The notes: a model not told the origin generated them from the sequence alone. A stretch of DNA of 64,000 nt from Chloroflexota bacterium (GCA_016215025.1 JACRMI010000010.1:12331-76330); one strand, 5' to 3'. Positions 1-13,190 are shown, numbered from the stretch's first letter. Made by a program: numbers and translations.

Positions 1-1368
1 TCTCTTGGCTTTTTCTAGTCCCTCTGCAATCTGCGCGTTGATCGCAGCGAGCGATTCAGTGCGCGGGTCTTCGGCGGTCACGACGATTTGATCTGCGAGT
101 TTTCCCGCAACTTGTCCCATCATCGCGCGCTTGGCCACATCGCGCAAACCCGCGCAGCCAAACACGACGATGACTCTGCCACGAGTAATTTCGCGCGCGG
201 TCTCCAATGCAACGCGGAGCGCATTCGGCGTGTGCGCGAAATCGACCATGACGCCGAATGGTTCACTTTGCATCGTCTGCATTCTGCCGACGACGCCTTT
301 AACCTTTGCTACGCCTTCGCGCATTGCGTCGAACGGTACGCGCCGCGCCATGCCCACCCCAATCGCTGCGAGAATGTTCGACACATTAAAGCGTCCGATC
401 ATGGAACTGGTAATTGGTAATTCGCCGTGCGGCGTCGCGACGGTAAAGCGCAGTCCGTTAATCGAGTGCTCAATGTTGCGAGCGATTGCAAATTCGTAAT
501 TAGAAATTGGACGCGAAGCGTGGAGATTGGAGATTGGACGCGCAGCGTGGAAGTTGGGATTTATGCTATAGACGATTTGTTGATCCGCAGGAATCTCTCG
601 CAAGTATTCAAACGCCCCGCGCTCATTATCGTCCGCGTTCAGCACGGCGACTTTAGCGGTACGCGGTTTGCGAAACGACGTGGCAAGCGAACGAAAAAGC
701 ATCGCCTTAGCGTCGCGATAATTCTCCCAGGTCTTGTGAAAGTACAAATGCTCGTGGGTGATGTTCGTAATCGCGGCAATATCGAACTCGACCGCATCAA
801 GCCGATGTTGCGCCAACCCTTCCGACGTCGCTTCGATCACGGCATACTGCACCCCGGCATCGACCATTTGCGCGAGGTAACGTTGAATCTCCGGCGCATC
901 GGGCGTTGTCGTGTGCAAACCGGTGTCGATGTGTTGATCGCCGATGGTTGCGGCAACAGTCGTGATCGTTCCGACTTTGTGCCCGGCCGTTGCTAGGATC
1001 GATGCGGCGAGCGTACAAGTCGTCGTCTTGCCATCCGTGCCCGTGATGCCAATCACGCGCAGCTTACGCGATGGAAAATCGTGCCAGGCGGCGACGAGAT
1101 GGGCGAGGGCAGAACGCGCGTCTGAAACGAGAATATGTGGGACAGAGTACGGGAGTGCGGGAGCGGTGTGAGAGACGATGGCAACTGCGCCGCGTTGAAT
1201 TGCATCAGAAATAAAGCGCGTGCCATCGACACTGACGCCGGGGTATGCGACGAACAACGCGCCGGGCGTAACCTGGCGCGAGTCGGCAGTGATTTGCGTG
1301 ATGTCTACATCGTGCGCGTTGTGGATTTGGTAGGTGGGCAGCGCGCGCAAGAGCGAGTCTAGTTTCAT
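1..1368 (-). CDS. murE: UDP-N-acetylmuramoyl-L-alanyl-D-glutamate--2,6-diaminopimelate ligase MurE (partial; C-terminus runs off the window start)
   Basis: Manual reverse-complement translation from the ATG at 1368 gives MKLDSLLRALP...RVIGITGTDGKTTTCTLAASIL...DAKAML..., i.e. the Mur-ligase P-loop GITGT(D/N)GKTTT. It is absent from the ORF track only because there is no stop codon inside the window. It overlaps the upstream gene by ATGA. Confidence 0.9.
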   Translation of the reverse strand, partial: MKLDSLLRALPTYQIHNAHDVDITQITADSRQVTPGALFVAYPGVSVDGTRFISDAIQRGAVAIVSHTAPALPYSVPHILVSDARSALAHLVAAWHDFPSRKLRVIGITGTDGKTTTCTLAASILATAGHKVGTITTVAATIGDQHIDTGLHTTTPDAPEIQRYLAQMVDAGVQYAVIEATSEGLAQHRLDAVEFDIAAITNITHEHLYFHKTWENYRDAKAMLFRSLATSFRKPRTAKVAVLNADDNERGAFEYLREIPADQQIVYSINPNFHAARPISNLHASRPISNYEFAIARNIEHSINGLRFTVATPHGELPITSSMIGRFNVSNILAAIGVGMARRVPFDAMREGVAKVKGVVGRMQTMQSEPFGVMVDFAHTPNALRVALETAREITRGRVIVVFGCAGLRDVAKRAMMGQVAGKLADQIVVTAEDPRTESLAAINAQIAEGLEKAKR

Positions 1369-3449
1369 TTTGGAATGTTTATTTCAGTCGGCTGAGGGGT
1401 CGGCTGCGGATGCCATTGCGTTGCCAGCGCACTCAACGAGCCATCGACCGGATTTCCATCGATGTCCACCAGACTGAATTCGCTCACGAGCAAGCGCAGT
1501 GGATCGTACGGATTCGGCGCTTTGGGATTTGGTTGATCGGGTCCGTAGACGTAGACAAAGCCACCAATCGACGAAACCTGCTGAACCGTGTTCCACATCA
1601 TCGCGTATTGCGCCGGGCGTTCGCTGCGCGCCATCCCAAACGGCGCAAACTCGCCAACGATGAGCGCGACCCCCAATCGCTCTTCTACGCTCTGCCGCGT
1701 GACGTGCAAAACCTGGGAGATGCCCTCCGGCTTGCCGTACGTGTTCGCCGCGAAAATGAAATACTTGCTGGGATCGACCGGGGGCGCAGGTTTTTGCACG
1801 CGCACGCGTCGAAGCGATTCCTCAAAATAAGGCACATACAAATCGCGCGGCTCTTTGACAATGCTGACGCGATTGGGATCGAGCGTGGACGCCAGCGTGG
1901 ACAGCTCCATCAAAAAGTCGGATGCCATTTGAAGTTTGTCCGGCGTGCGATGATTTTCGATCTCCATCCGATGGAGCAGTTCGTCGCCGCCTGGATTCCA
2001 ACCCCAAACCGCTGGTGAGTCTTTGTATTCCAACACAAACTTGCGAAATTGCTCTTTAAGCTGCTCGCGGTAATTTTTGTTTTCGAATGCGCCTTGGGCA
2101 TCCAACTCGAACGGCATAATCACGCCGATGCCATGGTGGTGCGCGATGTCTAGCGTGACGTGATCGTACACGCCCCAGCCGATGATGGCATTCACGCCGG
2201 CATTTTTCATGATCTGAAAATCACGTAGATGGAATTTGCGTTTCACCTCATCGGGCAGCGCCGTGTAGTTGACGTTATAGTTAATGCCTTTGAGGTAAAC
2301 GGGACGATCATTGACGACGAGCGAGAATTTGTTATTCGTTCTTTTCAATTCGACGATGCGCTGGCGGACCTGGGTCGGCGCGGGCGTTGCGGTGGCCGTG
2401 GGCGTGGGTAGAGGCGTTGGTGTAAGTGATGGCGTTGCCACAGTCACTTGCATCGATTTTGGCACCGTCGTCGGAGCGGACACTGTAACGGTTAGTATCG
2501 CAGTGGGTGTTGGCAGCTCCGGTGTGACCGCTTGCACTTGTGTGACAATCTGCGCGACCTTGACTCTCGGCGTGTAAAGCGTGGTGTCGGCGATCCCGAA
2601 AAATCGAGGTGAGACGAATGAAACGAGAAGCAATGGCGAGAGTGCGAGCGCGAGATTGGTTTTGCGCAGGACGCGCGCGGAGAATGATCGTTTGAGTCTT
2701 TCCGGTTGCTTGCTCAATCGAGATTGAATGCCGTCGAAAATTTTGCAAATCAACCACGCCGTGTCAATCGCCGCGAGCACCAACAGGGTTGGGATCAAGA
2801 GTGGCAGCGCTTGATCCATCAGCCAGTTGTAGCTTTGTTTATCGAGTTGCAGCCACAGCGAAAATCCCACGCCAATTCCGGTTTCGCGCAGACCCGCAAG
2901 CGCAGGCGACATCGTCAATCGAAATGCGATGCAGATGCCTTGCGCGGCGATAAATAATCCGACGATCACACTCAGCGTTTGTCGGATGGGCGCGGTCAGC
3001 AGCGCGTTGCGCAGCGGTTGTTTTTTTAGACTGAATCGAAAGAGGAGAAGACCGAAGACAATAACGATAAATTCGCTGACGGCTTGCGTTACGAAAAATC
3101 CCAGCACTGTGCTGTTCTCGCTGATGATGGAATTGATCCACCCTGAAAGTGAAATGACGCTGGCATCGACAAATAGTGCGGGGAAGAGCGAGTGCAAAAG
3201 CTGCCCCGGTATCCCTGCGACCGCAATTCCAATGGCGTCGATGCCACCCAGCGTTTCGACCATGATCTTGGCGTGGATAGGGCTGGCGAGAAATTGCTTG
3301 ACGATTTGATAGAGGAAATCGGCGTTCGCGATGGAGTTGACGAATGTTGCGACGGTGACGACGACAAGTTCGTGTATGAGTGCGAGGAAGGGTTGAATCA
3401 GGACAAACGCGATCAGAATTTTGATCGCGCGGTTCGATAATGCATTCAT
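1365..3449 (-). CDS. Polytopic membrane domain (about 7 TM) - Pro/Thr linker - glycoside-hydrolase-like (GH clan-A/GH5-like TIM barrel) domain
   Basis: 694-aa ORF. The N-terminal 330 aa are hydrophobic helices. A PT-rich linker (TPELPTPTAILTVTVSAPTTVP...TPTPLPTPTATATPAPT) follows. The C-terminal domain carries NAGVNAIIGWG, GWNPGGDEL and VGEFAPFG motifs, and is paralogous to 3655..5022. Confidence 0.6.
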   Translation of the reverse strand: MNALSNRAIKILIAFVLIQPFLALIHELVVVTVATFVNSIANADFLYQIVKQFLASPIHAKIMVETLGGIDAIGIAVAGIPGQLLHSLFPALFVDASVISLSGWINSIISENSTVLGFFVTQAVSEFIVIVFGLLLFRFSLKKQPLRNALLTAPIRQTLSVIVGLFIAAQGICIAFRLTMSPALAGLRETGIGVGFSLWLQLDKQSYNWLMDQALPLLIPTLLVLAAIDTAWLICKIFDGIQSRLSKQPERLKRSFSARVLRKTNLALALSPLLLVSFVSPRFFGIADTTLYTPRVKVAQIVTQVQAVTPELPTPTAILTVTVSAPTTVPKSMQVTVATPSLTPTPLPTPTATATPAPTQVRQRIVELKRTNNKFSLVVNDRPVYLKGINYNVNYTALPDEVKRKFHLRDFQIMKNAGVNAIIGWGVYDHVTLDIAHHHGIGVIMPFELDAQGAFENKNYREQLKEQFRKFVLEYKDSPAVWGWNPGGDELLHRMEIENHRTPDKLQMASDFLMELSTLASTLDPNRVSIVKEPRDLYVPYFEESLRRVRVQKPAPPVDPSKYFIFAANTYGKPEGISQVLHVTRQSVEERLGVALIVGEFAPFGMARSERPAQYAMMWNTVQQVSSIGGFVYVYGPDQPNPKAPNPYDPLRLLVSEFSLVDIDGNPVDGSLSALATQWHPQPTPQPTEINIPK

Positions 3450-3572
3450 GCGAGCTCTTTACAATTTCGTGATTAGGATGGTTTCGATTTTACCATGACC
3501 ACGCGATTGCGACAAATCCTTTGTTACCCTGAGACACTCATGCCCGCGAGGGCATGTTTACGGAAAGAAACT

Positions 3573-3641
3573 TGTCATTCTGAGCGCAGCGAAGAATCCC
3601 GTCCCGCGAAATGAGACCCTTCGCTTCGCTCAGGGTGACAC
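3573..3641. repeat. Hairpin repeat, GTCATTCTGAGCGCAGCGAAG...CTTCGCTTCGCTCAGGGTGACA family, copy 1
   Basis: Imperfect inverted repeat in the 3450-3654 intergenic gap. Related copies lie at 30925, 44614, 53284 and 53668. Confidence 0.85.
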
Positions 3642-3654
3642 TTTGTTTGACGAT

Positions 3655-5022
3655 TTAAGGATTGACAGTCGGCGTGGGCGTGGCAAATGCGTGCCACTTG
3701 GCGGCCAACGCCGCGAGTGAATCGTCGACCGGCACGCCGTTCATATCGAGGAGCGAATATTCGCTGGGCAAAAGTGTGAGTGGATCGTAGGGATTCGGGA
3801 CCTTGGGATTGGGCTGATCGGGACCAAACACATAGACCAAGCCGCCGATGGTTGAGTTGCGCGCGACGACATCCCAAATGTCGGCATAATCGATTGGGCG
3901 TTCCTCGCGCTGCGAATTGAACGGGCCAAATTCGCTGACCATCATCGCTAAACCCAGTTGTCCTGTCAACGTGAGTCGAGCGTTGCCCAATGCCAACTGA
4001 ATGTCATCCGTCCGACCGTAGACGTTGACGCCATAAACGAGCGACGAACTCACGTCGCGATAGTTCGGCTGGGTCTTGGCTTGATGCAACGACGTGTTGA
4101 GATATTTGATGTACCAATCGCGCGGCTCTTTGATAACGTTGATGTGGTTGGGGTCAAGCGCATACGCCATCTGCGCTAATTCAAATTCTAGATCACAGGC
4201 AACTTGCAATTTGTCAGCGGTTCTTCCTTCTTCGCCTCTCATTCGATACAATAATTCATCGCCGCCGGGATTCCACCCCCAGACGGCAGGGAAATCCTTA
4301 AAGCGCTTGACGTATTCGCGAAAATTCGATTTGATTTCGTTTCGATATGCCTCGCTTTCAAATGAGCCAGAAGGATCCAACTCAAACGGCATAATGACGC
4401 CGATGCCAAATTCTTGTGCGACTTGAAGAGTGATTTCATTATAGATACCCCAACCGATGATGGCATTGACGCCGGCGTCGCGCATGATTTTGAAATCGCG
4501 CCGCTGCATCTTGAACTGTATATCTTCTGGGAGATTGGTGTAGCTGACGTTGTAATTCATGCCCGTGATATACGTCGGGTGACCATTGACCATCAGCGTG
4601 AATTGATCGCCGTTACGTGCAACAGTCACGTGCGATGGTTTACTTGGCGGCGAAGAAGAGCCAAACGGTGATTGAGTTGGAGTCTCAAGTGGGATGCCCC
4701 GAATCGGCAGAATCGTCCGTGCGACGGTTGGGCGAACCGGCGTGACGCGCAATGGCGTGCGGGTAGGGCGCGGAGATCGGGTTGAAGATGGCGCAATGGT
4801 GTCGGTGCGGGTGACGGTCGATGTTAATTTGGAGGTGATTGTGCTAGTAACCGTGGCAATAGCAACTTGCGTTGGAGGAATTGGCGTGGTTCCGTTCGCA
4901 CGCGCACACGCCAGCGTCGAAAGTAAAATAAAAAAGGCAGGTACGAAGGAGAAACCAGCGATCAGACGTTTGAGCATGAAGAAATTGGTCATTCTCTTAT
5001 CCTGAGAATTATGTCGGCACAA
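3655..5022 (-). CDS. Secreted/membrane-anchored glycoside-hydrolase-like protein (paralog of the C-terminal domain of 1365..3449)
   Basis: N-terminal signal anchor (FSFVPAFFILLSTLACA), a Thr-rich linker, then GMNYNVSYTNLPED...NAGVNAIIGWGIY...GWNPGGDELL...VSEFGPFN, which aligns with the upstream paralog. Confidence 0.6.
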   Translation of the reverse strand: MCRHNSQDKRMTNFFMLKRLIAGFSFVPAFFILLSTLACARANGTTPIPPTQVAIATVTSTITSKLTSTVTRTDTIAPSSTRSPRPTRTPLRVTPVRPTVARTILPIRGIPLETPTQSPFGSSSPPSKPSHVTVARNGDQFTLMVNGHPTYITGMNYNVSYTNLPEDIQFKMQRRDFKIMRDAGVNAIIGWGIYNEITLQVAQEFGIGVIMPFELDPSGSFESEAYRNEIKSNFREYVKRFKDFPAVWGWNPGGDELLYRMRGEEGRTADKLQVACDLEFELAQMAYALDPNHINVIKEPRDWYIKYLNTSLHQAKTQPNYRDVSSSLVYGVNVYGRTDDIQLALGNARLTLTGQLGLAMMVSEFGPFNSQREERPIDYADIWDVVARNSTIGGLVYVFGPDQPNPKVPNPYDPLTLLPSEYSLLDMNGVPVDDSLAALAAKWHAFATPTPTVNP

Positions 5023-5090
5023 TCCGTGCCAGCAATCTCTTCGATGAGTTGCGCGATCACGTCGCTGTGGTCAGAACAATATTCGCTAAT

Positions 5091-5360
5091 TCAGGCTTGG
5101 GTTAGCTGCTTGCTCAACCACAAGTTGACGAGTGTTTCAGTGGATACGCCCATCGCGTGCGAACGCTTGACAAGCTCTTGCATTAGCGTTGGCTCGACGG
5201 CGACCAAATTCGTCCGGCTGCGAAGATCGACGTCGAAGTGAGCATCTTGGAATACATCGTCATAGTCCGCGATGCTATGAGTGTCCCAGAACTCTTGTAG
5301 TTCTTCGACGGATTTAAAGTTTTGTGGAATTGGATCACGACGTTTCTTATTTTTTGCCAT
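5091..5360 (-). CDS. BrnA-like (CopG/RHH-type) antitoxin
   Basis: 89 aa with EELQEFWDTHSIADYDDVF. It overlaps the upstream toxin gene by 14 bp, and the order is toxin first then antitoxin, as in brnTA. Confidence 0.55.
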   Translation of the reverse strand: MAKNKKRRDPIPQNFKSVEELQEFWDTHSIADYDDVFQDAHFDVDLRSRTNLVAVEPTLMQELVKRSHAMGVSTETLVNLWLSKQLTQA

Positions 5361-5631
5361 ACGTTCTACGCTCCTTGTTGTCCATATCTCTTCCGCTGAG
5401 TATCAGCGCTTCTCGATTCGGTTTATAGATAAACCATACGGCGATGTAACGCCCTTCATCAGTTTGACCTAAAGCTACATAAACATCTTCGCCACGATGT
5501 CGTCCGCGTTCAGCAAACTTGAATCGAGGTGAGTTAGCTAGCATTTGCTCAACTTCTACAGTGGCAAGATGATGTTTCCATGCTAACTTGTCTACTATGT
5601 CGGGTAGCCAAATGACTTTGTAAATCTTCAT
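5347..5631 (-). CDS. BrnT-like ribonuclease toxin (DUF497-like)
   Basis: 94 aa. The C-terminal ...ILSGRDMDNKERRTY resembles the conserved BrnT tail (ISAR.AtkkErk.Y). It is paired with a small RHH gene. Confidence 0.55.
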   Translation of the reverse strand: MKIYKVIWLPDIVDKLAWKHHLATVEVEQMLANSPRFKFAERGRHRGEDVYVALGQTDEGRYIAVWFIYKPNREALILSGRDMDNKERRTYGKK

Positions 5632-5670
5632 AGAGGTTACTCCAATTTCATTTTACCACGATTCATGCGC

Positions 5671-5704
5671 AAAAAAAAGGGCTTGGCAATTTATTACCAA
5701 GCCC
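5671..5704 (-). terminator. Rho-independent terminator after the ATPase gene (minus strand)
   Basis: Stem GGGCTTGG / CCAAGCCC followed on the minus strand by an 8-T run (the A8 at 5671-5678 on the plus strand). Confidence 0.55.
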
Positions 5705-5719
5705 CATTGTTCTTTGCTG

Positions 5720-7051
5720 TTACGATGGCTTTATCAGACTCTTGATAAAGCCAACTGCCGTTTTTATAACATCAGGCGGAATTTTGCTGGCGATGTCTTT
5801 AATCTTTGCGATTTCATCGCGCGTTAACGGTCCCAAGAATTCCATGCCTCTGACTGCATCGAAATCTTTGGTGCTCCGCAAACCTACAACGATATTTTCC
5901 ATTAGCCAGGTTACCACGCCTGCAGATGCGACACGCCAGTTCTCGTCGTTCCATGCAACTGCGTTCGGTGCTGTATCTGATTCAACTACGCCTAACTCGC
6001 GCAGGTGGCGCAGTTCAGGCGCAAAGCGATCTAGCTTGCCGAGTTGCTGCATATCAAATGAACGACCGTCAACATAGCCGCGATATTCTGCAAGCGCGAG
6101 AAGGAATAGCGCGCGTTTTTCATCATCGGTGAGGGATCGCCAAAAATCCGCAAAGTGCGCGGCGGCGCGTTGGTGGAAGATTGCGGTCGCGTTGATGTAA
6201 CGCTTGTCGCCAGCGTCACCATTTGCAATGGCATCATAGAGCGATGCGCCCGCAACCTGGACGAGAAACGGTTGCTTTCCTGCAAGCGAAAAGAGCCAGT
6301 CGTAATCTTCAGACGAAAAACGAATTTTGCCATTGTTGCGCGCCAGCGTCGTTTCAATCAGGTTTTGTGCATCTTCGCGCGCGAATGGGAGCAAACGAAC
6401 TTCAATACTATTGTTGAAGAACGGCGAGCCATAAGGATTGAGTTCTGCGCTTTTGCGATTCATTTGTGTAACTGACGATCGACTTGCGGTGATGACTGCC
6501 AAGCCGTCAGTGCGTGTGGCGAACGAACGGAGTGCGCCAAAGAATTCTGCATGGTTGAAATTAGGGTGATTGAGAAGTGAGTCAAATTCATCAATCAACA
6601 AGACAACGCGGCGTTCCTGTTTGGCGAGCAATTTGAACAATGCTTCAAGCGTGAAGGATCCGAAATTGTTTTCCGTGACGATCTTGCATTGCTTTTTAAT
6701 TGCATCATTAGCAGTTTCGAGAATTACGGTGAGAATTGTCTGCCAAAAATCGTTCGTAGTGAAAGTCGTGGACAGTATTTGGCAATCAATTTCAATACAC
6801 ACTTGTTGCTCGGAGATTTTACCCAGCCACTCACTCCGTGCGACTTCATCCGCGAGGTAGCGCAGAAGCGATGATTTGCCAATATGAGGCTCACCAACAA
6901 TCGCCGTGCTTTCGCCGTTAGCAAGGCGTGAGAAGAGCGTGCGAATTTCGATGCGGCGCCCGATGTGCTGGGCGGGCGGAACGGGTTTGCCATATAGGAA
7001 GGGATTGAGATTGGCCATATTACGACATATCCTTCGAGTTGCTCGTTTCAA
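5720..7051 (-). CDS. STAND/AAA-type P-loop ATPase (paralog 1), with a helical/winged-helix C-terminal extension
   Basis: NPFLYGKPV...FIGRR motif, Walker A GEPHIGKSS, Walker B VVLLIDEFD. It is paralogous to the N-terminus of 7083..11285 and to 25737..27068. Confidence 0.7.
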   Translation of the reverse strand: MKRATRRICRNMANLNPFLYGKPVPPAQHIGRRIEIRTLFSRLANGESTAIVGEPHIGKSSLLRYLADEVARSEWLGKISEQQVCIEIDCQILSTTFTTNDFWQTILTVILETANDAIKKQCKIVTENNFGSFTLEALFKLLAKQERRVVLLIDEFDSLLNHPNFNHAEFFGALRSFATRTDGLAVITASRSSVTQMNRKSAELNPYGSPFFNNSIEVRLLPFAREDAQNLIETTLARNNGKIRFSSEDYDWLFSLAGKQPFLVQVAGASLYDAIANGDAGDKRYINATAIFHQRAAAHFADFWRSLTDDEKRALFLLALAEYRGYVDGRSFDMQQLGKLDRFAPELRHLRELGVVESDTAPNAVAWNDENWRVASAGVVTWLMENIVVGLRSTKDFDAVRGMEFLGPLTRDEIAKIKDIASKIPPDVIKTAVGFIKSLIKPS

Positions 7052-7082
7052 GACTTTCAGCTATACGATACCCATTCTTTCG

Positions 7083-10000
7083 TTAAAGATCATCCTTCAG
7101 TTTTTGCTGCAAACAGGTCATTGCCATCGCCACGAGTGCAAATCCGCCAAGCAGGAACCAACGACTCACTAGGTGTAGAACGGTGTGTCCATAATTGATT
7201 GACAACTCTGTGGGTGGTATGGGCACTCCATTCACTCTCTCAAGAGTTTGCAGGTACCGCATATCTATGATTGAACCGAGCGCATCCATTGTCCAATTCG
7301 TGGTGGTTATCCAAGATAACGGCTGTGCAATTTTTGGCAAAACGAAGATTGCGCCAGCGAAAAGAATCTCGATGAACAATACGAGCAAGATTGCATAGAT
7401 TACAACATCCTCGCTACGCGCAAGCGAAGAGATAAGAAGCCCTAGTCCAACACTTGCCAACGTCGCCAACACAAGTGTGATGTATATCTCCAACGGCGCT
7501 GGTAAGAATACGCCTTTTTCTGGTAACGTCACTCTGAACCCGATTACAAGTAGGAAAAAAGTCGATTGGATCAAGCTGAAGAAAAATAGAACGCCAACCT
7601 TGGAAAAGATGTACGGCAGGACGCCGAGATTCACCATTCGCTCGCGTTTGTAGATGTGTTGTTCGCGCACGATTTCATAAGCCGACGCGAAAATTCCGAG
7701 GAATACGGGGACAAGACTGACGATGAAAAGTAGCTTTTGTGCATCACCAACCTTGGCATAGTTCGCCATCATGGCGATCACCGCGACGTTTTCGCCTACG
7801 AGATCATTTGGATTCGCGATAGCCAACACCAAAATGGCAATGAGCGGCATGAGTGCTAGCAAGATAAAGAGTGTTACACGGTCGCGCACGATCAATTCAA
7901 AATACCGTTGCGAAAGAACCCACCATTGCCAGAATGGCGACCCTCTTGCCCGGCTAGGCGAAGCGGCGTGTGGAGTGTGCGTTGCGAGGTTCACGTTTTG
8001 CAATGGCATAGCAATGAACTGCTGATAGTACGGCGATTGTTTGAATTGTTGTTCCCAGTATTGCGGAGATTGATCGGGATTGTTTGGGTCATTCAATCGC
8101 GCGAGTTCTGAGTATATATCAGAAAAATCACTTTTCCGAAAGAATGCTAGGGCTTCGTCCGGTGGTCCGTAGAAAACCAACCGCCCGTTTGCCATAAATG
8201 CAACCTTGTTACACCGATATATATTCTGCGTCGCGTGTGCTACGAGAATAATCGTGTGGCCACGATCCGCCAACTGTTGTAACATGTGCATCATTCTCTT
8301 TTCCAAGCTTGGGTCAAGTCCCGAGGTTGGTTCATCAAGAAAAAGTAGCAAGGGGGCTGCCAGAAGTTCGATTGCGATGCACACGCGCTTAAGTTGTCCG
8401 CCACTCAATCGCCCAACGAGTTGATGACGTTGGTGCTCGATTTCAGTGACTTGCATTACTTCCTGAATGCGCTGTTCGATCTGTGCGCTTAACCAGTCTG
8501 AAGGTAAACGCAATCTTGCGGCATAGCGCAAATTACTTTCTACTGTCAATCCATGGTAAATAATATCAGCTTGCGGCACAATACCGAGCATCGCACGATA
8601 GATTTCGTAGTCGTGATAAAAATCTGTGCCGTTGATGAGTACCATTCCGTCCGCGCGTGTGAAACCGCTCAGTGCGCTCATCAGTGTAGACTTGCCCGAA
8701 CCGCTCGCTCCGACGAGTGCGACAAATTCGCGTGGCTGAATGGACAGCGACACATCGTTCAATATTAATCGCGCGCCGCTCTTTGTTGGCTCACGGCGAA
8801 CAAGATGCAGTGCATCGAATCGTACATTACCGAGAATGTTGAACTGCGACAATCCCGCGCGATCGTACGTCAATTGAAAGGGACCGATCTGCACGACATC
8901 GTTCGGGCGCAAAACGTGTTGTTGTATGCACACGCCGTTTACGAATGTGCCATTCGTTGAATTGAGATCGGTGAGCGTGTGCATGTTGCCGTCGAAATCG
9001 ACACGCGCATGATGCCATGATACCATTGGCGCGTTAAGCGGTATCGTCGTGTTCGGGTCGCGACCAATCAGCGTGGTCGGCGCAGAAAGATTCATGCGCA
9101 TCATTGCGACGGTTGATGCCGCACCTGTATCGACATAAGTGAGGCTGACCGAATTGCCGAACGCATCGCCAATACGGATCACGTCGTTGTGATTCAAGAG
9201 ATGATTGTTGACTCGTTGACCGTTCAGTAACAAACCGTTCGTACTAACGAGATCAACGATGCGATAACTCGCGCCGACACGTTCAAGTCGCGCGTGGTTC
9301 GCCGATACGAACAGATGATTAATGACGATGTCGTTCGTCGGTGAGCGCCCCAGGGAGTAAACCAGCTTGTCGAGAGGCACTTCAATTGGGCCTTTCCCGG
9401 CGATATGGATGACCAACTTACGTGCGCTCGTGGTCGTTTGTGGGGCAGTATGCTGTCTGATTGTAGATGGATTGAGAATCAGAGTTGCCCTTGTTAGCAA
9501 TTCAGACGCATCTTTGTAATGAGGACGAATTTCTATCACATCGGTGAATGCCCTTTGTGCCTCAGCCCACTGACCTTGTTTGAAAGCTTCCAGTCCCTCT
9601 ACATATCGGCCTGCAATTTCTCTACCTTGTTCTGCTTTTGTAAGGGCGTCTTTCAAGGTTTCGTTCTCAGAATCTTGGTGCATCAGCTGCTTTATTAATT
9701 CAATGGCATCATCCCATCTTTCCTGATATAGCAAGTCATATGCCGAGTCTATTTGTTGTCCAGATCGGAGTTCCTCTTGCAGGAGTGTGGCTTTTTCGTT
9801 TGCTCTCATGTTGCCCGGAGAAATTTCCAGTATACGAGAATAATCTTTGAGGGCGGCGTCGGTCTGATACCCTTTCTCCAATGAACTGGCTCTGTTGAAT
9901 AGCGTTTCCTCAAGTAGCTGTTTTCCTTCTTCTCGGTCTATCTCATATAAGGTTTCAAACTCGCGTATCGCATCATCAAACCTATCTTGTGCGCGATAAA

Positions 10001-11285
10001 CCTCGCCGAGCAATAGTCGTGCTTTGAGATGATTCGGGTTTACGTTGAGTGCGCTCTGCAATTGCGTGATCGTGCGTTCCAAATCGCCGCGCCGATAAAA
10101 TCCGTTCGCGCCTTGATATAGCGTGTCGGCAAGCGGCACGACGCGATCCAATTCGTCTTTGACTTTGTCCATCGGCTTACGCGCAACGACCCAGCGGCGC
10201 AGTAACTCGACAAAGAATCTGTAGCCGCCATCAGTTTGCTTTAGCATCTCCCATTCGACGAGCGTTTTCGGCGCAGGTTCCAATTCGCGGATTAAGATAC
10301 GGATACCTTGCGTTTGCAGAATCGAGATCAAGCGTTCGTCGGTGACGACGGTTTGCTCGTCTGTACCAGATGCTATTGCGGAGAAGATCACGCGCTCGGC
10401 GGGTGGTAAGCCATCCCAAATCCATTCAAATTGCGCTTCGCCTGCTTCCAACACTTTTAGAACAATCTCGTCTACGTCAACGGGTGTGATTTCAATTCGG
10501 GGTGGTTCGTTTACGTAGGCACGCTCGAAGAGAAGTTGGCAGGTCAGTTGTGTAAAGTATGGATGTCGCGCGCTCAAATCCAATACCCGTGTTACTGCAT
10601 CGTCGCTGAAATGCAATAGGTCATTGCGCTCGGCAGTGCGAACGAGCGTGTGTGCCGCTTCGTCGTCCAAAACTGAGACGCGCGCAAAGCGCGATGACTT
10701 GAATGCAGATTTGAACTCGATACCTAGCTCTTCAGCTTTGCGCCCAACTACAAACACGAAACCCAAACGAGGTTCGTTTATCATCAAATCGCGTAAGTAA
10801 GGAAAGAATGCGAACGCAGCAGAGGTTGGCGCAAGTTTTTCTTCTGTGCCGACGTTCAGCACGTCAAATTCGTCAAAGAGCAAAACCAAGCGATTATCGC
10901 TAAGCGCGGTGTAAACCGTCGGCAAAAACTTGTCGCGGAAGCCACGCCCTTCGTCGTCAAAATCAGTTCGCGTAGGTTGCGGCAACTTCAATTCTTGTGC
11001 AATCGTCGCAGCAAGTTCAAATGATACTTGCGCGAGCGATTTGCGGGCTCGATCCATCAGATCGAAATAGACAGAGATAAATGGAGGTGAGGGGAGTTGC
11101 GTGCGGAGATTGAGCAGAATTGACGTTTTGCCAATGCGTCGCTGACCAAAGAGGACAACCGAGTTTTGATCGGGTGACGACAGCGTGGTATGCACGAGGC
11201 GGAACACATCCTCGCGTCCAAAGAAACCGCGTGAATCGCCGAGTGCTTTGCCTGCAATGTACGGATTGCGGGGTGGAGTGGGCAT
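7083..11285 (-). CDS. Multidomain fusion: STAND ATPase - TPR repeats - FHA - FHA - ABC transporter ATPase - ABC-2 (ABCG-like) permease
   Basis: Single uninterrupted ORF. The likely start is the ATG at 11285 (MPTPPRNPYIAGK), with GGAG 6 nt upstream. Domain evidence: Walker A GQRRIGKTS and LLFDEFD (STAND ATPase); TPR-like helical repeats; two FHA signatures (LGRSPTNDIVI...ARLE...STNGLLLNG and IGRDPNTTIPL...ARVD...STNGTFVNG); ABC Walker A GASGSGKST, signature LSGGQLKRV, Walker B LLFLDEPTSGLD; six C-terminal TM helices. Confidence 0.8.
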   Translation of the reverse strand: MPTPPRNPYIAGKALGDSRGFFGREDVFRLVHTTLSSPDQNSVVLFGQRRIGKTSILLNLRTQLPSPPFISVYFDLMDRARKSLAQVSFELAATIAQELKLPQPTRTDFDDEGRGFRDKFLPTVYTALSDNRLVLLFDEFDVLNVGTEEKLAPTSAAFAFFPYLRDLMINEPRLGFVFVVGRKAEELGIEFKSAFKSSRFARVSVLDDEAAHTLVRTAERNDLLHFSDDAVTRVLDLSARHPYFTQLTCQLLFERAYVNEPPRIEITPVDVDEIVLKVLEAGEAQFEWIWDGLPPAERVIFSAIASGTDEQTVVTDERLISILQTQGIRILIRELEPAPKTLVEWEMLKQTDGGYRFFVELLRRWVVARKPMDKVKDELDRVVPLADTLYQGANGFYRRGDLERTITQLQSALNVNPNHLKARLLLGEVYRAQDRFDDAIREFETLYEIDREEGKQLLEETLFNRASSLEKGYQTDAALKDYSRILEISPGNMRANEKATLLQEELRSGQQIDSAYDLLYQERWDDAIELIKQLMHQDSENETLKDALTKAEQGREIAGRYVEGLEAFKQGQWAEAQRAFTDVIEIRPHYKDASELLTRATLILNPSTIRQHTAPQTTTSARKLVIHIAGKGPIEVPLDKLVYSLGRSPTNDIVINHLFVSANHARLERVGASYRIVDLVSTNGLLLNGQRVNNHLLNHNDVIRIGDAFGNSVSLTYVDTGAASTVAMMRMNLSAPTTLIGRDPNTTIPLNAPMVSWHHARVDFDGNMHTLTDLNSTNGTFVNGVCIQQHVLRPNDVVQIGPFQLTYDRAGLSQFNILGNVRFDALHLVRREPTKSGARLILNDVSLSIQPREFVALVGASGSGKSTLMSALSGFTRADGMVLINGTDFYHDYEIYRAMLGIVPQADIIYHGLTVESNLRYAARLRLPSDWLSAQIEQRIQEVMQVTEIEHQRHQLVGRLSGGQLKRVCIAIELLAAPLLLFLDEPTSGLDPSLEKRMMHMLQQLADRGHTIILVAHATQNIYRCNKVAFMANGRLVFYGPPDEALAFFRKSDFSDIYSELARLNDPNNPDQSPQYWEQQFKQSPYYQQFIAMPLQNVNLATHTPHAASPSRARGSPFWQWWVLSQRYFELIVRDRVTLFILLALMPLIAILVLAIANPNDLVGENVAVIAMMANYAKVGDAQKLLFIVSLVPVFLGIFASAYEIVREQHIYKRERMVNLGVLPYIFSKVGVLFFFSLIQSTFFLLVIGFRVTLPEKGVFLPAPLEIYITLVLATLASVGLGLLISSLARSEDVVIYAILLVLFIEILFAGAIFVLPKIAQPLSWITTTNWTMDALGSIIDMRYLQTLERVNGVPIPPTELSINYGHTVLHLVSRWFLLGGFALVAMAMTCLQQKLKDDL

Positions 11286-11402
11286 TGTCGCTCCAATTTT
11301 ACCGAGTCTAATACGAACTTGTGCAATGACTATTCTACCACGAATGACTTGCCAATACAAAAGACCTGACAGGTCTCCGAAGACCTGTCAGGTTTGTCCC
11401 TC

Positions 11403-11603
11403 TCAAAACGAAAACTTGGTCCAATCGGTGCCGCCGATGATTCCGCACGCGAACAGAATGAACAGAATCAGAAAAATGATTCCACAGCCACAGCCGCTGC
11501 ATCCGCGTCCGAATCCGAAATTCTTTTGCAGCCAGTCGAACAAGGTGTTGAGCAGGAACATTTCGAGCAGTCCTGCCAAACAGCCACGACGACCATCACC
11601 CAT
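11403..11603 (-). CDS. Cys/Gly-rich small membrane protein (66 aa), function unknown
   Basis: The ATG at 11603 has a perfect AGGAGG 8 nt upstream. Product: MGDGRRGCLAGLLEMFLLNTLFDWLQKNFGFGRGCSGCGCGIIFLILFILFACGIIGGTDWTKFSF, with a CxxCxC motif and a C-terminal TM helix. It lies immediately upstream of the FHA-ABC fusion gene. Confidence 0.5.
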   Translation of the reverse strand: MGDGRRGCLAGLLEMFLLNTLFDWLQKNFGFGRGCSGCGCGIIFLILFILFACGIIGGTDWTKFSF

Positions 11604-11708
11604 TTGAATACCTCCTGAGAATGAGACCGCCGACAATCGACCGCTGACCGCTGAATGAATGCGCGGTGGGCGGTCAGTTGTCGGCGGTCAATCGACTACA
11701 CCAAACGT

Positions 11709-13190
11709 TTACGGCGTTGCGACTCCGAACATGCCCATCGACCAAGCGGCGATGTTGACCACGGGATCGGGATATATCGCGAACGCAAGCACCAGCGCGC
11801 CAGTGATAACGAGCGAGAGCGTGACGAGCGGCGCAATGCGAATCGGCGTTGGGTCTTTCGGCGCTTCAAAGAATGCTTGGCGCACAACGCTGAAATAGTA
11901 GAAAACGGAGATGACGCTGTTGATGACGCCAATCGCGGCAAGTACAATGTAACCTTCGCGCAAGGCAGCGCCGAAAACAAAGAACTTGCCGATAAAGCCA
12001 GCCGTCGGCGGAATGCCGGCGAGCGAGAGGAAGAAGATGACGAACAGCGCAGCCACTAACGGAGCGCGTTTTACCAACCCGGCATACTCTGGAATCTCGA
12101 CGATGCCGGTTGTGTTTTCGATGGCGATCACGCAGATGAACGCGCCCAGGTTTGTAAACAGATAGGCAAAGAGATAGATCAAGATACCGTTCAAACCGGA
12201 GAAGGTAGGAGATGCTGTGAGGTTGACGGCGATCACACCGATGAGCATATAGCCCGCTTGCGCAATCGACGAGTAGGCGAGCATACGTTTGACGTTGGTT
12301 TGCTGCAACGCGGTGAGATTGCCGAGCGTCATCGTCAAAATCGAAATGACGACGAGCAGCGGAATCCACCCTTCTTTGTACGCAGGCAATGCGATGATGG
12401 CGAGTCGAAGCAGAACGGCAAAGCCCACCGCTTTCGGCCCGACCGAGAGGAAGGCCGTGACCGGCGTTGGCGCGCCTTCGTATGCGTCGGGAGCCCATTG
12501 ATGGAATGGGACGAGCGAAATCTTGAAACCCAGTCCAGCCAGCACGAGTGCTGTCGAGACCAGCCCGACCATGCGAACGGACGCATCGACAGTGTTGGTG
12601 AAGGTAGCGGCGATGTCGCTCAGGTTGAGCGAGCCACTGATGCCGTAGAGCAGCGAAAGACCGTAGAGCATCGTGGCGCTCGTAATCGCGCCGTAGAGGA
12701 AATACTTGATGGCTGACTCGTTCGATTTTTTATCGTCGCGCAAAAAGCCTGTGAGCAGATAGGACGTGTAACTCAAGAATTCAATCGAGAGATAGACCAT
12801 CAACAAGCTGCCAGAGCTGGCTGTCATCGTCATCGCCAGCACGGCGAACGTAAATATCGAGTAGAACTCGCCTTTGTAAGGTGTTCGATTTTTGAGATAA
12901 TCGATTGAGACCAACGTAAGGATGATGCCGGTGATGGCGGCAATCATCTTGAAGAACAGTGAGAACGTGTCGATGTAATACATTCCGGCGAATCGAGTTA
13001 CGTCCGATCCCCAAATGTAAAACGTTGCGCCAAGCGCGAGTGCGAATCCGAGAATCGTAATCCATGGCAAAATGCCCTGGCTTTTTTCGCGCCAGATCAC
13101 GTCGATCAGCAAAATGAGAATCCCGAAAATCGATAACACCAGTTCGGGTGAAATCAGAATCAGTGTTTGAGCATCAGGCATAATAGTCAC
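11709..13190 (-). CDS. nuoN: NADH-quinone oxidoreductase subunit N
   Basis: 493 aa, 14 TM, typical NuoN/ND2 antiporter-like fold; last gene of the nuo block. Confidence 0.9.
   Translation of the reverse strand: MTIMPDAQTLILISPELVLSIFGILILLIDVIWREKSQGILPWITILGFALALGATFYIWGSDVTRFAGMYYIDTFSLFFKMIAAITGIILTLVSIDYLKNRTPYKGEFYSIFTFAVLAMTMTASSGSLLMVYLSIEFLSYTSYLLTGFLRDDKKSNESAIKYFLYGAITSATMLYGLSLLYGISGSLNLSDIAATFTNTVDASVRMVGLVSTALVLAGLGFKISLVPFHQWAPDAYEGAPTPVTAFLSVGPKAVGFAVLLRLAIIALPAYKEGWIPLLVVISILTMTLGNLTALQQTNVKRMLAYSSIAQAGYMLIGVIAVNLTASPTFSGLNGILIYLFAYLFTNLGAFICVIAIENTTGIVEIPEYAGLVKRAPLVAALFVIFFLSLAGIPPTAGFIGKFFVFGAALREGYIVLAAIGVINSVISVFYYFSVVRQAFFEAPKDPTPIRIAPLVTLSLVITGALVLAFAIYPDPVVNIAAWSMGMFGVATP

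Follow-up and report, generated by a model that had tools for sequence, protein, structure and literature searches.

An Rv1747-like exporter in the C-terminal slot of a STAND-TPR protein: a rare domain swap in a Chloroflexota bacterium

What would an ABC exporter do at the end of a STAND ATPase? This question is raised by a giant gene in a stretch of 64,000 nucleotides from a Chloroflexota bacterium (GCA_016215025.1, JACRMI010000010.1:12331-76330; hereafter the window), which joins in one chain a STAND-type NTPase with TPR repeats and an FHA-FHA-ABC transporter of the kind known from Rv1747 of Mycobacterium tuberculosis. An earlier reading, made from the sequence alone, had pointed out this fusion and had suggested a module for controlled export or defence. 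We searched the proteins of the window with the Pfam, NCBIfam and PADLOC profiles and compared them with their relatives. Our analysis implies that the locus is a rare domain swap within a widespread two-gene STAND system, and not a new kind of system: we consider it likely that the membrane anchor of a STAND pair was here replaced by an Rv1747-like exporter. All features of the window described below lie on its minus strand.

The fused protein and its junction

The coding sequence of the giant gene (7083..11285, 1400 amino acids and a stop codon; MBI5029165.1 at NCBI, labelled 'FHA domain-containing protein') is part of an uninterrupted open reading frame (ORF) at 7083..11360. Its start is likely the ATG at 11285, which is a sensible choice because a GGAG stands 6 nucleotides 5' of it, because the resulting N-terminus, MPTPPRNPYIAGK, is common to the relatives (MPTPPRNPY in the homologues), and because the identical 1400-residue product was called in two public assemblies. 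From the N-terminus onwards the protein consists of a NOD-type NTPase, TPR repeats, a disordered linker, two FHA domains, an ABC ATPase and an ABCG-type permease. The Pfam matches are far above chance and place the NTPase, the TPRs, both FHA domains, ABC_tran and ABC2_membrane in one ORF; therefore, the architecture described in the sequence-only reading is real.

The NTPase module (10131..11285, residues 1-385) is matched by AAA_16, AAA_22 and ATPase_2 at residues 21-185. It carries an NPYxxG motif, Walker A GQRRIGKTS (residues 47-55) and Walker B LLFDE, the latter within LLFDEFD with D138 and E139, so that both motifs named earlier were found again; helical and winged-helix parts follow. The TPR solenoid (9480..10130, residues 386-602) is recognised by many Pfam TPR models at residues 390-590 and appears as helical repeats in the AlphaFold2 model. 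Next comes the fusion junction with its linker (9423..9479, residues 603-621, LILNPSTIRQHTAPQTTTS..), which is Thr-rich and predicted to be disordered. The first FHA domain (9129..9422, residues 622-719; Pfam FHA and Yop-YscD_cpl) has G646 R647, S661, H664 and N683, the second (8841..9098, residues 730-815; Pfam FHA) has G741 R742, S756, H759, N778 and G779, and the two matched stretches (residues 635-707 and 738-801) reach an E value of 9e-37. The ABC nucleotide-binding domain (8100..8819, residues 823-1062; ABC_tran at 842-988, E 4e-29) contains GASGSGKST (K865), Q905, LSGGQ at 960-964, D984 E985 and H1017. The ABC-2/ABCG-type permease (7086..7937, residues 1117-1400) with its about six transmembrane helices is supported by ABC2_membrane (residues 1120-1332, E 1e-16), hydropathy and Foldseek.

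The N-terminal module has the arrangement of a NOD, a nucleotide-binding domain with helical and winged-helix parts resembling NB-ARC or PF01637, and a repeat-type sensor region of TPRs C-terminal to it (residues about 386-602), as is typical of STAND proteins. GQRRIGKTS and LLFDE are invariant across 58 homologues. The conserved NPYxxG motif begins at residue 7 and leaves no room before it, therefore an N-terminal effector domain is absent. Its fold and motifs are those of a switch that carries a TPR sensor and oligomerises depending on NTP, a behaviour that is predicted for the giant protein. Sequence searches of the PDB were swamped by generic TPR and ABC matches and were of no help in its classification. 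Two relatives (P0089 and P0317) contain tandem NTPase copies of the STAND-TPR type in one chain, both nearer to the N-terminal module of the giant protein than to the partner ATPase described below. Their reading as 'Rosetta stone' fusions of the partner with a STAND-TPR protein was rejected, as BLAST identified them as tandem duplications.

The earlier reading of the C-terminal half as an FHA-FHA-ABC exporter of the Rv1747 type is borne out by Pfam, alignment, phmmer and Foldseek; the exporter is intact and its fold is that of ABCG proteins. The first five FHA residues listed for each domain stand in invariant or nearly invariant columns of the family, and all motifs of the ABC domain in invariant ones. 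The first FHA domain matches that of Rv1747 (6cah; phmmer, E 5e-7) and the second matches the FHA domains of GarA and Rv0020c. The top Foldseek matches of the AlphaFold2 model of the C-terminal half are ABCG2 and ABCG5/G8, with a target-normalised TM-score of about 0.82. In NCBIfam only partial, sub-threshold similarity to TIGR00955 (ABCG/White-type) and to generic ABC ATPases was found, and in PADLOC only generic ABC-ATPase matches. The FHA-FHA-ABC family is very large in Anaerolineae and Chloroflexota (6982 matches at E<=1e-20 among the scored candidates), and the two members closest to the giant protein adjoin Ser/Thr kinases. Stand-alone homologues (L004, L005; P0122, P0123, P0128) begin with a zinc ribbon, which is followed by a conserved 'TQ' linker, and some have a third, N-terminal FHA domain. 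Proteins encoded beside such stand-alone genes include a Pkinase-FGE-sulfatase, a Pkinase-zinc-ribbon protein, double-zinc-ribbon proteins and a separate FHA protein.

That this is a single polypeptide free of frameshifts was borne out by a second assembly. The NCBI copy, from a metagenome-assembled genome (MAG), lies on a 117-kb contig. The same 1400-residue protein is encoded in the Logan assembly of SRR12113407 (contig SRR12113407_665972), whose DNA is 100% identical to the window at 3614..12030, over 8417 bp without gaps, and spans the whole gene with both flanks. The frame is open across the junction and the other two frames hold stops there. In BLASTP the homology of the N-terminal half stops at about residue 602 (P0002, 69% identity) and that of the C-terminal half begins at about residue 611 (P0121, 66% identity). 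The junction directly follows the last conserved TPR of the N-terminal family, RP(D/H)YKDA..LL, and in the alignment it matches the passage from the zinc ribbon to the 'TQ' linker before the first FHA domain of the stand-alone FHA-FHA-ABC proteins. In the AlphaFold models of the halves the predicted local distance difference test score is below 50 over 19 junction residues, with confident domains on either side. All family-invariant residues are kept in both halves: the Walker motifs of the NOD, the phosphothreonine-binding residues of the FHA domains, and Walker A, Q-loop, LSGGQ, Walker B and H-loop of the ABC domain. To judge from these comparisons, the junction is exactly the variable boundary of both parent families.

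One could argue that the fusion is an artefact of assembly or sequencing, and that an indel or a chimeric path through the contig has merged a STAND-TPR-anchor gene with a zinc-ribbon-FHA-ABC gene. Indeed it is a singleton, with one cluster member on one NCBI contig, the nearest relatives of each half are unfused, and both assemblies may come from the same reads. However, a different assembler (Logan) yielded the identical contig over the gene and its flanks, the join is in frame within a disordered linker, at a place where both families have a natural domain boundary, and there is no repeat of at least 16 nucleotides at the junction within the window (no 16-mer around it recurs elsewhere). 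Additionally, the flanks, with nuoN and a micro-protein gene upstream and the partner gene stand2 downstream, match an orthologous locus (L019, below), and therefore a chimera would need two breakpoints within one gene. From the sequences at hand a chimeric assembly is very unlikely, and we hardly reckon with an artefact.

The exact architecture does not belong to any named or widespread family and is unique in the databases searched. No other protein with both halves was found among 5.8 billion clusters in a word-indexed search with the full protein and the C-terminal half as queries, and an exhaustive HMMER scan with residues 1-1200 gave no double match among 1.84 billion representatives; its top scores belonged to a protein with the N-terminal half only (839 bits) and to the best protein with the C-terminal half only (806 bits). 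A described STAND-ABC transporter fusion was not found in the literature searched. One other STAND-TPR-ABC protein is known to us from the databases, P0020 of 1096 residues, from the JGI samples 3300028549, 3300033512 and 3300033564 and one ENA assembly. It has a NOD (43-264), TPRs (402-478), ABC_tran (539-683) and ABC2_membrane (804-1070), lacks FHA domains, and is 38% identical to the giant protein in NOD-TPR and 37% in the ABC nucleotide-binding domain and ABC-2 permease; a stand2-like gene fragment stands downstream of it, at the contig end. The nearest relative of its N-terminal half (P0341, 85% identity) is unfused, thus the two fusions are independent events. This recurrence argues that the coupling of a NOD to an exporter is selectable. 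No description of proteins of the P0020 type was found in the literature searched.

The partner ATPase and the variable slot

The gene downstream of the giant gene, stand2 (5720..7018), encodes an nSTAND2/AAA_35/NACHT-like ATPase of 432 residues and a stop codon. Across 50 homologues, its Walker A motif (GEPHIGKSS) and its Walker B motif (LLIDEF) show a conservation of 90% or more. The protein scores 41.8 bits against Pfam nSTAND2 (PF20702, cutoff 24), also matches AAA_35 and NACHT, and received from PADLOC only a weak generic match (mad8, E 2e-4). A stand-alone STAND ATPase had been reported at this place and is present; its start is most likely the ATG at 7018, as in two other assemblies, and the gap to the giant gene is 64 nucleotides instead of 32. 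The view that it is a paralog of the giant gene's ATPase had to be given up: the NTPase domains of the two proteins share just 22% identity (E 8e-6) and are distant relatives, not recent paralogs, and stand2 is one of two genes that make up a system, in which it is the conserved partner.

The family was collected by scanning one genome per GTDB species with the family alignment A1, which gave 274 relatives, and 80 loci were kept; a scan of genome contigs with the single 432-residue partner sequence as query gave no matches. The hosts are mostly Chloroflexota, together with Myxococcota, Acidobacteriota, cyanobacteria, and Beggiatoa-like and Desulfobacterota MAGs, and those outside Chloroflexota are mostly filamentous or aggregating bacteria. 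Of the family loci, 50 are flanked by 1.4 kb or more on either side, and in 34 of these a co-oriented homologue of stand2 is the direct neighbour, either downstream at a distance of -8 to about 100 nucleotides or directly upstream. The pairing is also seen in the closest relative (L002), in L001 and in L107, the locus of a STAND-TPR-FHA protein. By gene neighbourhood, then, stand2 is a conserved operon partner of the STAND-TPR family. In the window the giant gene and stand2 form the operon and are predicted to be co-transcribed between two strong intrinsic terminators: one upstream of the giant gene (11364..11393; 13-bp stem and T-tract), which ends the transcript of nuoN and the micro-protein gene, and one after stand2 (5678..5705; 12-bp stem and T8), which ends the two-gene operon. 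Two promoter candidates upstream of the giant gene were rejected: one predicted by a tool (11325..11296) is unconvincing, being too near the ribosome-binding site, and one read by hand (TTGTAT-17-TGgTAGAAT, 11360..11332) fails the criteria of the promoter tool.

The first protein of the family is composed of a NOD NTPase, TPR repeats and a C-terminal module that varies greatly. Most often this module consists of one or several transmembrane helices, alone or together with an ectodomain: in a simple hydropathy test, one helix or more was predicted after the TPRs in 50 of 72 complete ORFs of the family. Other contents of the slot are extra TPRs, WD40 propellers, FGE-sulfatase domains, DUF1566 and LysM. 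Ser/Thr kinases, histidine-kinase domains, a Ras-like GTPase and Band-7 were also noted (P0376/P0409, P0399/P0425, P0059 and P0005 among such members), as were a TIR with two EAD7 domains (P0401) and a single FHA domain (P0420); the latter gene, in L107, has an AAA_35 partner gene directly downstream. Most members in the loci L006-L085 are receptor-like, with a cytoplasmic NOD-TPR part, one transmembrane helix and a C-terminal region of 250-350 residues that is presumably extracytoplasmic. An emphasis on such receptor-like topology was not found in the nSTAND literature searched.

Which of these modules did the exporter replace? The closest relatives of the giant protein (P0002, P0003, P0004) end, by hydropathy, in small multi-transmembrane anchors. 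The clearest comparison is offered by L019 from Candidatus Aquidulcis, where the gene order is nuoM, nuoN, the micro-protein gene (71% identical), a STAND-TPR gene with a six-transmembrane anchor, and stand2. The window shows the same synteny, except that FHA-FHA-ABC stands there in the position of the plain anchor of L019; therefore the exporter entered a slot that is normally used for membrane attachment. The sequence-only reading had placed the exporter where a nuclease or another effector would usually stand; in the close relatives the slot holds instead a plain transmembrane anchor, with or without an ectodomain. Gene order and alignment thus describe a C-terminal module that was replaced, at an orthologous locus, by an intact half-transporter of the Rv1747 kind, which in turn has lost its own zinc ribbon.

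Export switch, anchor or defence

ABCG-type half-transporters work only as dimers, since both the pair of composite ATP sites and the path for translocation are formed by the dimer. We propose that the TPRs of the giant protein would bind a cytoplasmic ligand or protein, and that nucleotide-dependent oligomerisation of the NOD, probably as a hetero-oligomer with the partner ATPase, would bring the fused half-transporters together. Because these must dimerise, such an assembly would switch or cluster export activity. The FHA domains would add a phosphothreonine-dependent input, with the Thr-rich linker of the junction as a candidate acceptor. That half-transporters dimerise and that NODs oligomerise is taken from what is established for ABCG transporters and for STAND/NLR proteins. 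By this analogy, the gating of export by NOD assembly is a tentative proposal. Equally tentative is the wider idea that NOD oligomerisation serves as a transport switch with a dedicated second STAND ATPase, and that this coupling has arisen at least twice, in the giant protein (P0001) with FHA domains and in P0020 without them. The identity of the locus and the gating mechanism taken together form the reading which, on balance, we prefer.

However, the exporter could tether the STAND-TPR part to the membrane and otherwise keep its kinase-regulated export, the STAND pair signalling by another route, for example through the partner ATPase. The frequency of transmembrane helices after the TPRs is in line with such an uncoupled anchor swap, and so are the small anchors at exactly that position in P0002, P0003, P0004 and L019 and the stand-alone FHA-FHA-ABC relatives, which are complete systems beside Ser/Thr kinases. 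Nevertheless, an ATP-driven transporter of 790 residues would be a costly anchor, its catalytic and phosphothreonine-binding residues are all kept, and other samples contain a STAND-TPR-ABC fusion of independent origin. Moreover, a covalent link to an oligomerising NOD would almost unavoidably affect the dimerisation of the half-transporters. We therefore regard a swap of anchors without coupling as rather unlikely.

The surroundings of the operon bear on this discussion as well. On the upstream side lies the micro-protein gene (11403..11603), which encodes 66 residues with a Cys-rich stretch (GCSGCGCG) and a single transmembrane helix, and which has no Pfam, NCBIfam or PADLOC match. A CxxCxC membrane peptide with an AGGAGG ribosome-binding site had been described here, and its 66 residues and the AGGAGG (11616..11611) are present; the gap to the ATG of the giant gene is 117 nucleotides, not 74, and holds the terminator. 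The gene begins 70 nucleotides after nuoN, upstream of the first terminator. Its homologues (57-89% identity, on 21 metagenome contigs including L086-L106, and also at 7684..7884 of L019) stand directly after nuoN in nine loci, whether STAND genes follow or not, and occur away from nuoN too; L019 excepted, none was found in the other STAND-family loci examined. Because of the terminator, the linkage to nuoN and the absence from those loci, the micro-protein was rejected as a member of the operon and as a component of the system. It is a small membrane protein unrelated to that system, belongs to a conserved family, and may serve the NADH dehydrogenase operon as a small accessory subunit or as the product of its tail gene.

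Beyond the terminator after stand2, the BrnTA-like toxin-antitoxin pair that had been noticed there was found as BrnT (5347..5631) and a CopG-type antitoxin (5091..5360). The two genes (5091..5631) overlap by 14 nucleotides; the BrnT match of 33.8 bits is just below the Pfam gathering score of 34.5, and the antitoxin passes with 32.8 against 28. Two ORFs without a family match come next, 3655..5022 (455 residues, with an N-terminal transmembrane helix and a Thr/Pro-rich linker) and 1368..3458 (697 residues), and then murE (1..1383). The interval from murE to nuoN and the micro-protein gene is about 10 kb in the window versus about 2 kb in the related contig L102. In L093 and L101-L103 this space holds only antitoxin-like genes and STAND scars, in which the first approximately 54 residues of a STAND-TPR gene, up to Walker A GQRR, are joined to the last approximately 45 residues of stand2. 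L102 has two such scars (5585..5888 and 6375..6671), amid a CopG-antitoxin-like gene and an aspartyl-protease-like ORF, and a related antitoxin gene on their other side; shorter scars are found in L094 and L095. Judging by these remnants, close relatives are losing the two-gene module.

Such a variable nuoN-murE stretch, with toxin-antitoxin genes and a STAND pair reduced to scars in relatives, would also suit an anti-invader system of the conflict or abortive-infection type. The TPRs would then sense a phage or another foreign protein, and the ABC permease would be the effector, acting by metabolite export or membrane disturbance. This alternative agrees with the TIR and EAD7 domains of some family members, which are typical of conflict systems in the accounts given by Kaur et al. 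2020 and 2021 (PMC7159879, PMC8195603), and with the prediction, in the part of the latter paper on the two-gene nSTAND2 operon, that this operon counters invaders. Conversely, PADLOC has no model for the STAND-TPR protein and only the weak mad8 match for its partner, an N-terminal effector is absent, and most C-terminal modules of the family are anchors, repeats, ectodomains and signalling domains, not toxins. Both NTPases are of the active type, unlike the pair as presented in that publication, and the exporter resembles an ordinary functional member of a housekeeping-type family. A defence role of the locus thus appears quite unlikely to us.

Several observations weigh against the combination of anchor replacement and gated export that we prefer. 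The commonest module in the slot is a plain membrane anchor, therefore the exporter could be only an anchor. A search for the HRDxKxxN kinase motif, by motif only, found none in any ORF of at least 100 residues in the 64 kb of the window. Only one population is known to carry exactly this fusion, hence selection on the fusion itself cannot be shown. Finally, the decay of the STAND pair to scars in relatives means that the module is dispensable.

Known outputs of STAND and NLR proteins are nucleases, proteases, NADases, pores and transcription. If the gating of export is true, an ATP-driven exporter as fused output would extend this list, and the induced proximity of half-transporters would be a new upstream switch for ABC transporters; neither this type of STAND output nor this mode of ABC transporter regulation would have been described so far. 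On firmer ground stands the context. The NOD-TPR-X family is large, most of its members are anchored in the membrane, and its second ATPase gene looks obligate; it is only partly covered by the nSTAND2 description in the published sections on that operon, and it holds in its slot anchors, ectodomains, kinases, TIR/EAD7 and, rarely, transporters. The fusion itself is a real, rare new domain architecture within a known, notoriously modular protein class. Its significance is limited, since the exact fusion comes from one uncultured population and its function is wholly inferred, and promiscuous C-terminal fusions, which are the norm in the STAND-TPR family, weigh against it. Since NOD-exporter fusions recur and the two-gene setting is well defined, the coupling is nevertheless a testable hypothesis.

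Comparison with known systems

The exporter half shares with Rv1747 the order FHA-FHA-nucleotide-binding domain-permease, the Gly-Arg, Ser, His and Asn phosphothreonine-binding residues in both FHA domains, the competent ATPase motifs and the ABC-2/ABCG-type permease, all in one chain that makes a half-transporter. It differs in the 600-residue NOD-TPR part, which takes the place of the N-terminal region (a zinc ribbon in the Chloroflexi homologues), and in the operon partner, which is a STAND ATPase. A cognate Ser/Thr kinase in or beside the operon, which is a feature of the Rv1747 type, is missing here, as the operon consists of the giant gene and stand2 only. The Rv1747 type has a long, disordered, phospho-acceptor linker between its FHA domains and an activity that is positively regulated by phosphorylation. 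In contrast, the inter-FHA linker of the giant protein, which is shorter than that of Rv1747, has only about 20 residues (YVDTGAASTVAMMRMNLSAPTT), and a Thr-rich disordered stretch stands before the first FHA domain instead of between the two. In the published passages on its regulation, Rv1747 is an FHA-FHA-ABC exporter controlled by the kinase PknF (PMC3138270, PMC8339232), whose target threonines T152 and T210 are located in the non-structured inter-FHA linker (PMC8339232).

The best structural matches of the N-terminal module are the PF01637 'archaeal ATPase' family (2qen, 2fna) and the NB-ARC NODs of NLRs (CED-4, plant resistosomes), with which it shares the P-loop domain and the helical and winged-helix parts. 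The sequence identity is just 12-15%, and the module is fused to TPRs and a membrane transporter; unlike the NB-ARC NLRs, the giant protein has no N-terminal effector, CARD or TIR domain. The likeness to Avs proteins that the sequence-only reading had proposed fails on topology. Avs proteins feature an N-terminal effector (a nuclease, protease, SIR2, TIR or others), whereas the giant protein has none, carries its variable domain C-terminal to the TPRs, is embedded in the membrane and is paired with a second ATPase. Residues 1-600 matched 0 PADLOC families, the Avs models included.

A closer likeness is found in the mobile two-gene nSTAND2 operon of Kaur, Iyer, Burroughs and Aravind (2021, eLife; PMC8195603, Fig. 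6C). As portrayed in that figure and the accompanying passages, the operon is a predicted counter-invader system, in which one NTPase is inactive and is fused to GT4 or HEPN effectors. Both there and here, two STAND-type NTPase genes are adjacent and co-oriented and one of them is fused to variable modules. As to nSTAND2 (PF20702), stand2 matches this Pfam family and several homologues of the N-terminal module carry precomputed matches to it, and the module of the giant protein itself does not reach the model. In contrast to the pair as published there, with its eroded partner, Walker A and B are kept in both NTPases of our system, and the variable module follows the TPRs and is usually a transmembrane anchor, not GT4 or HEPN. 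By sequence comparison with the operon in that description, the two-gene system thus resembles the published nSTAND2 pair, yet it fails two of its defining features. The P0020 type stands nearest in architecture: it shares with the giant protein a NOD-TPR part of the same family, the ABC nucleotide-binding domain, the ABC-2 permease and the stand2-like fragment downstream, and differs from it in being without FHA domains.

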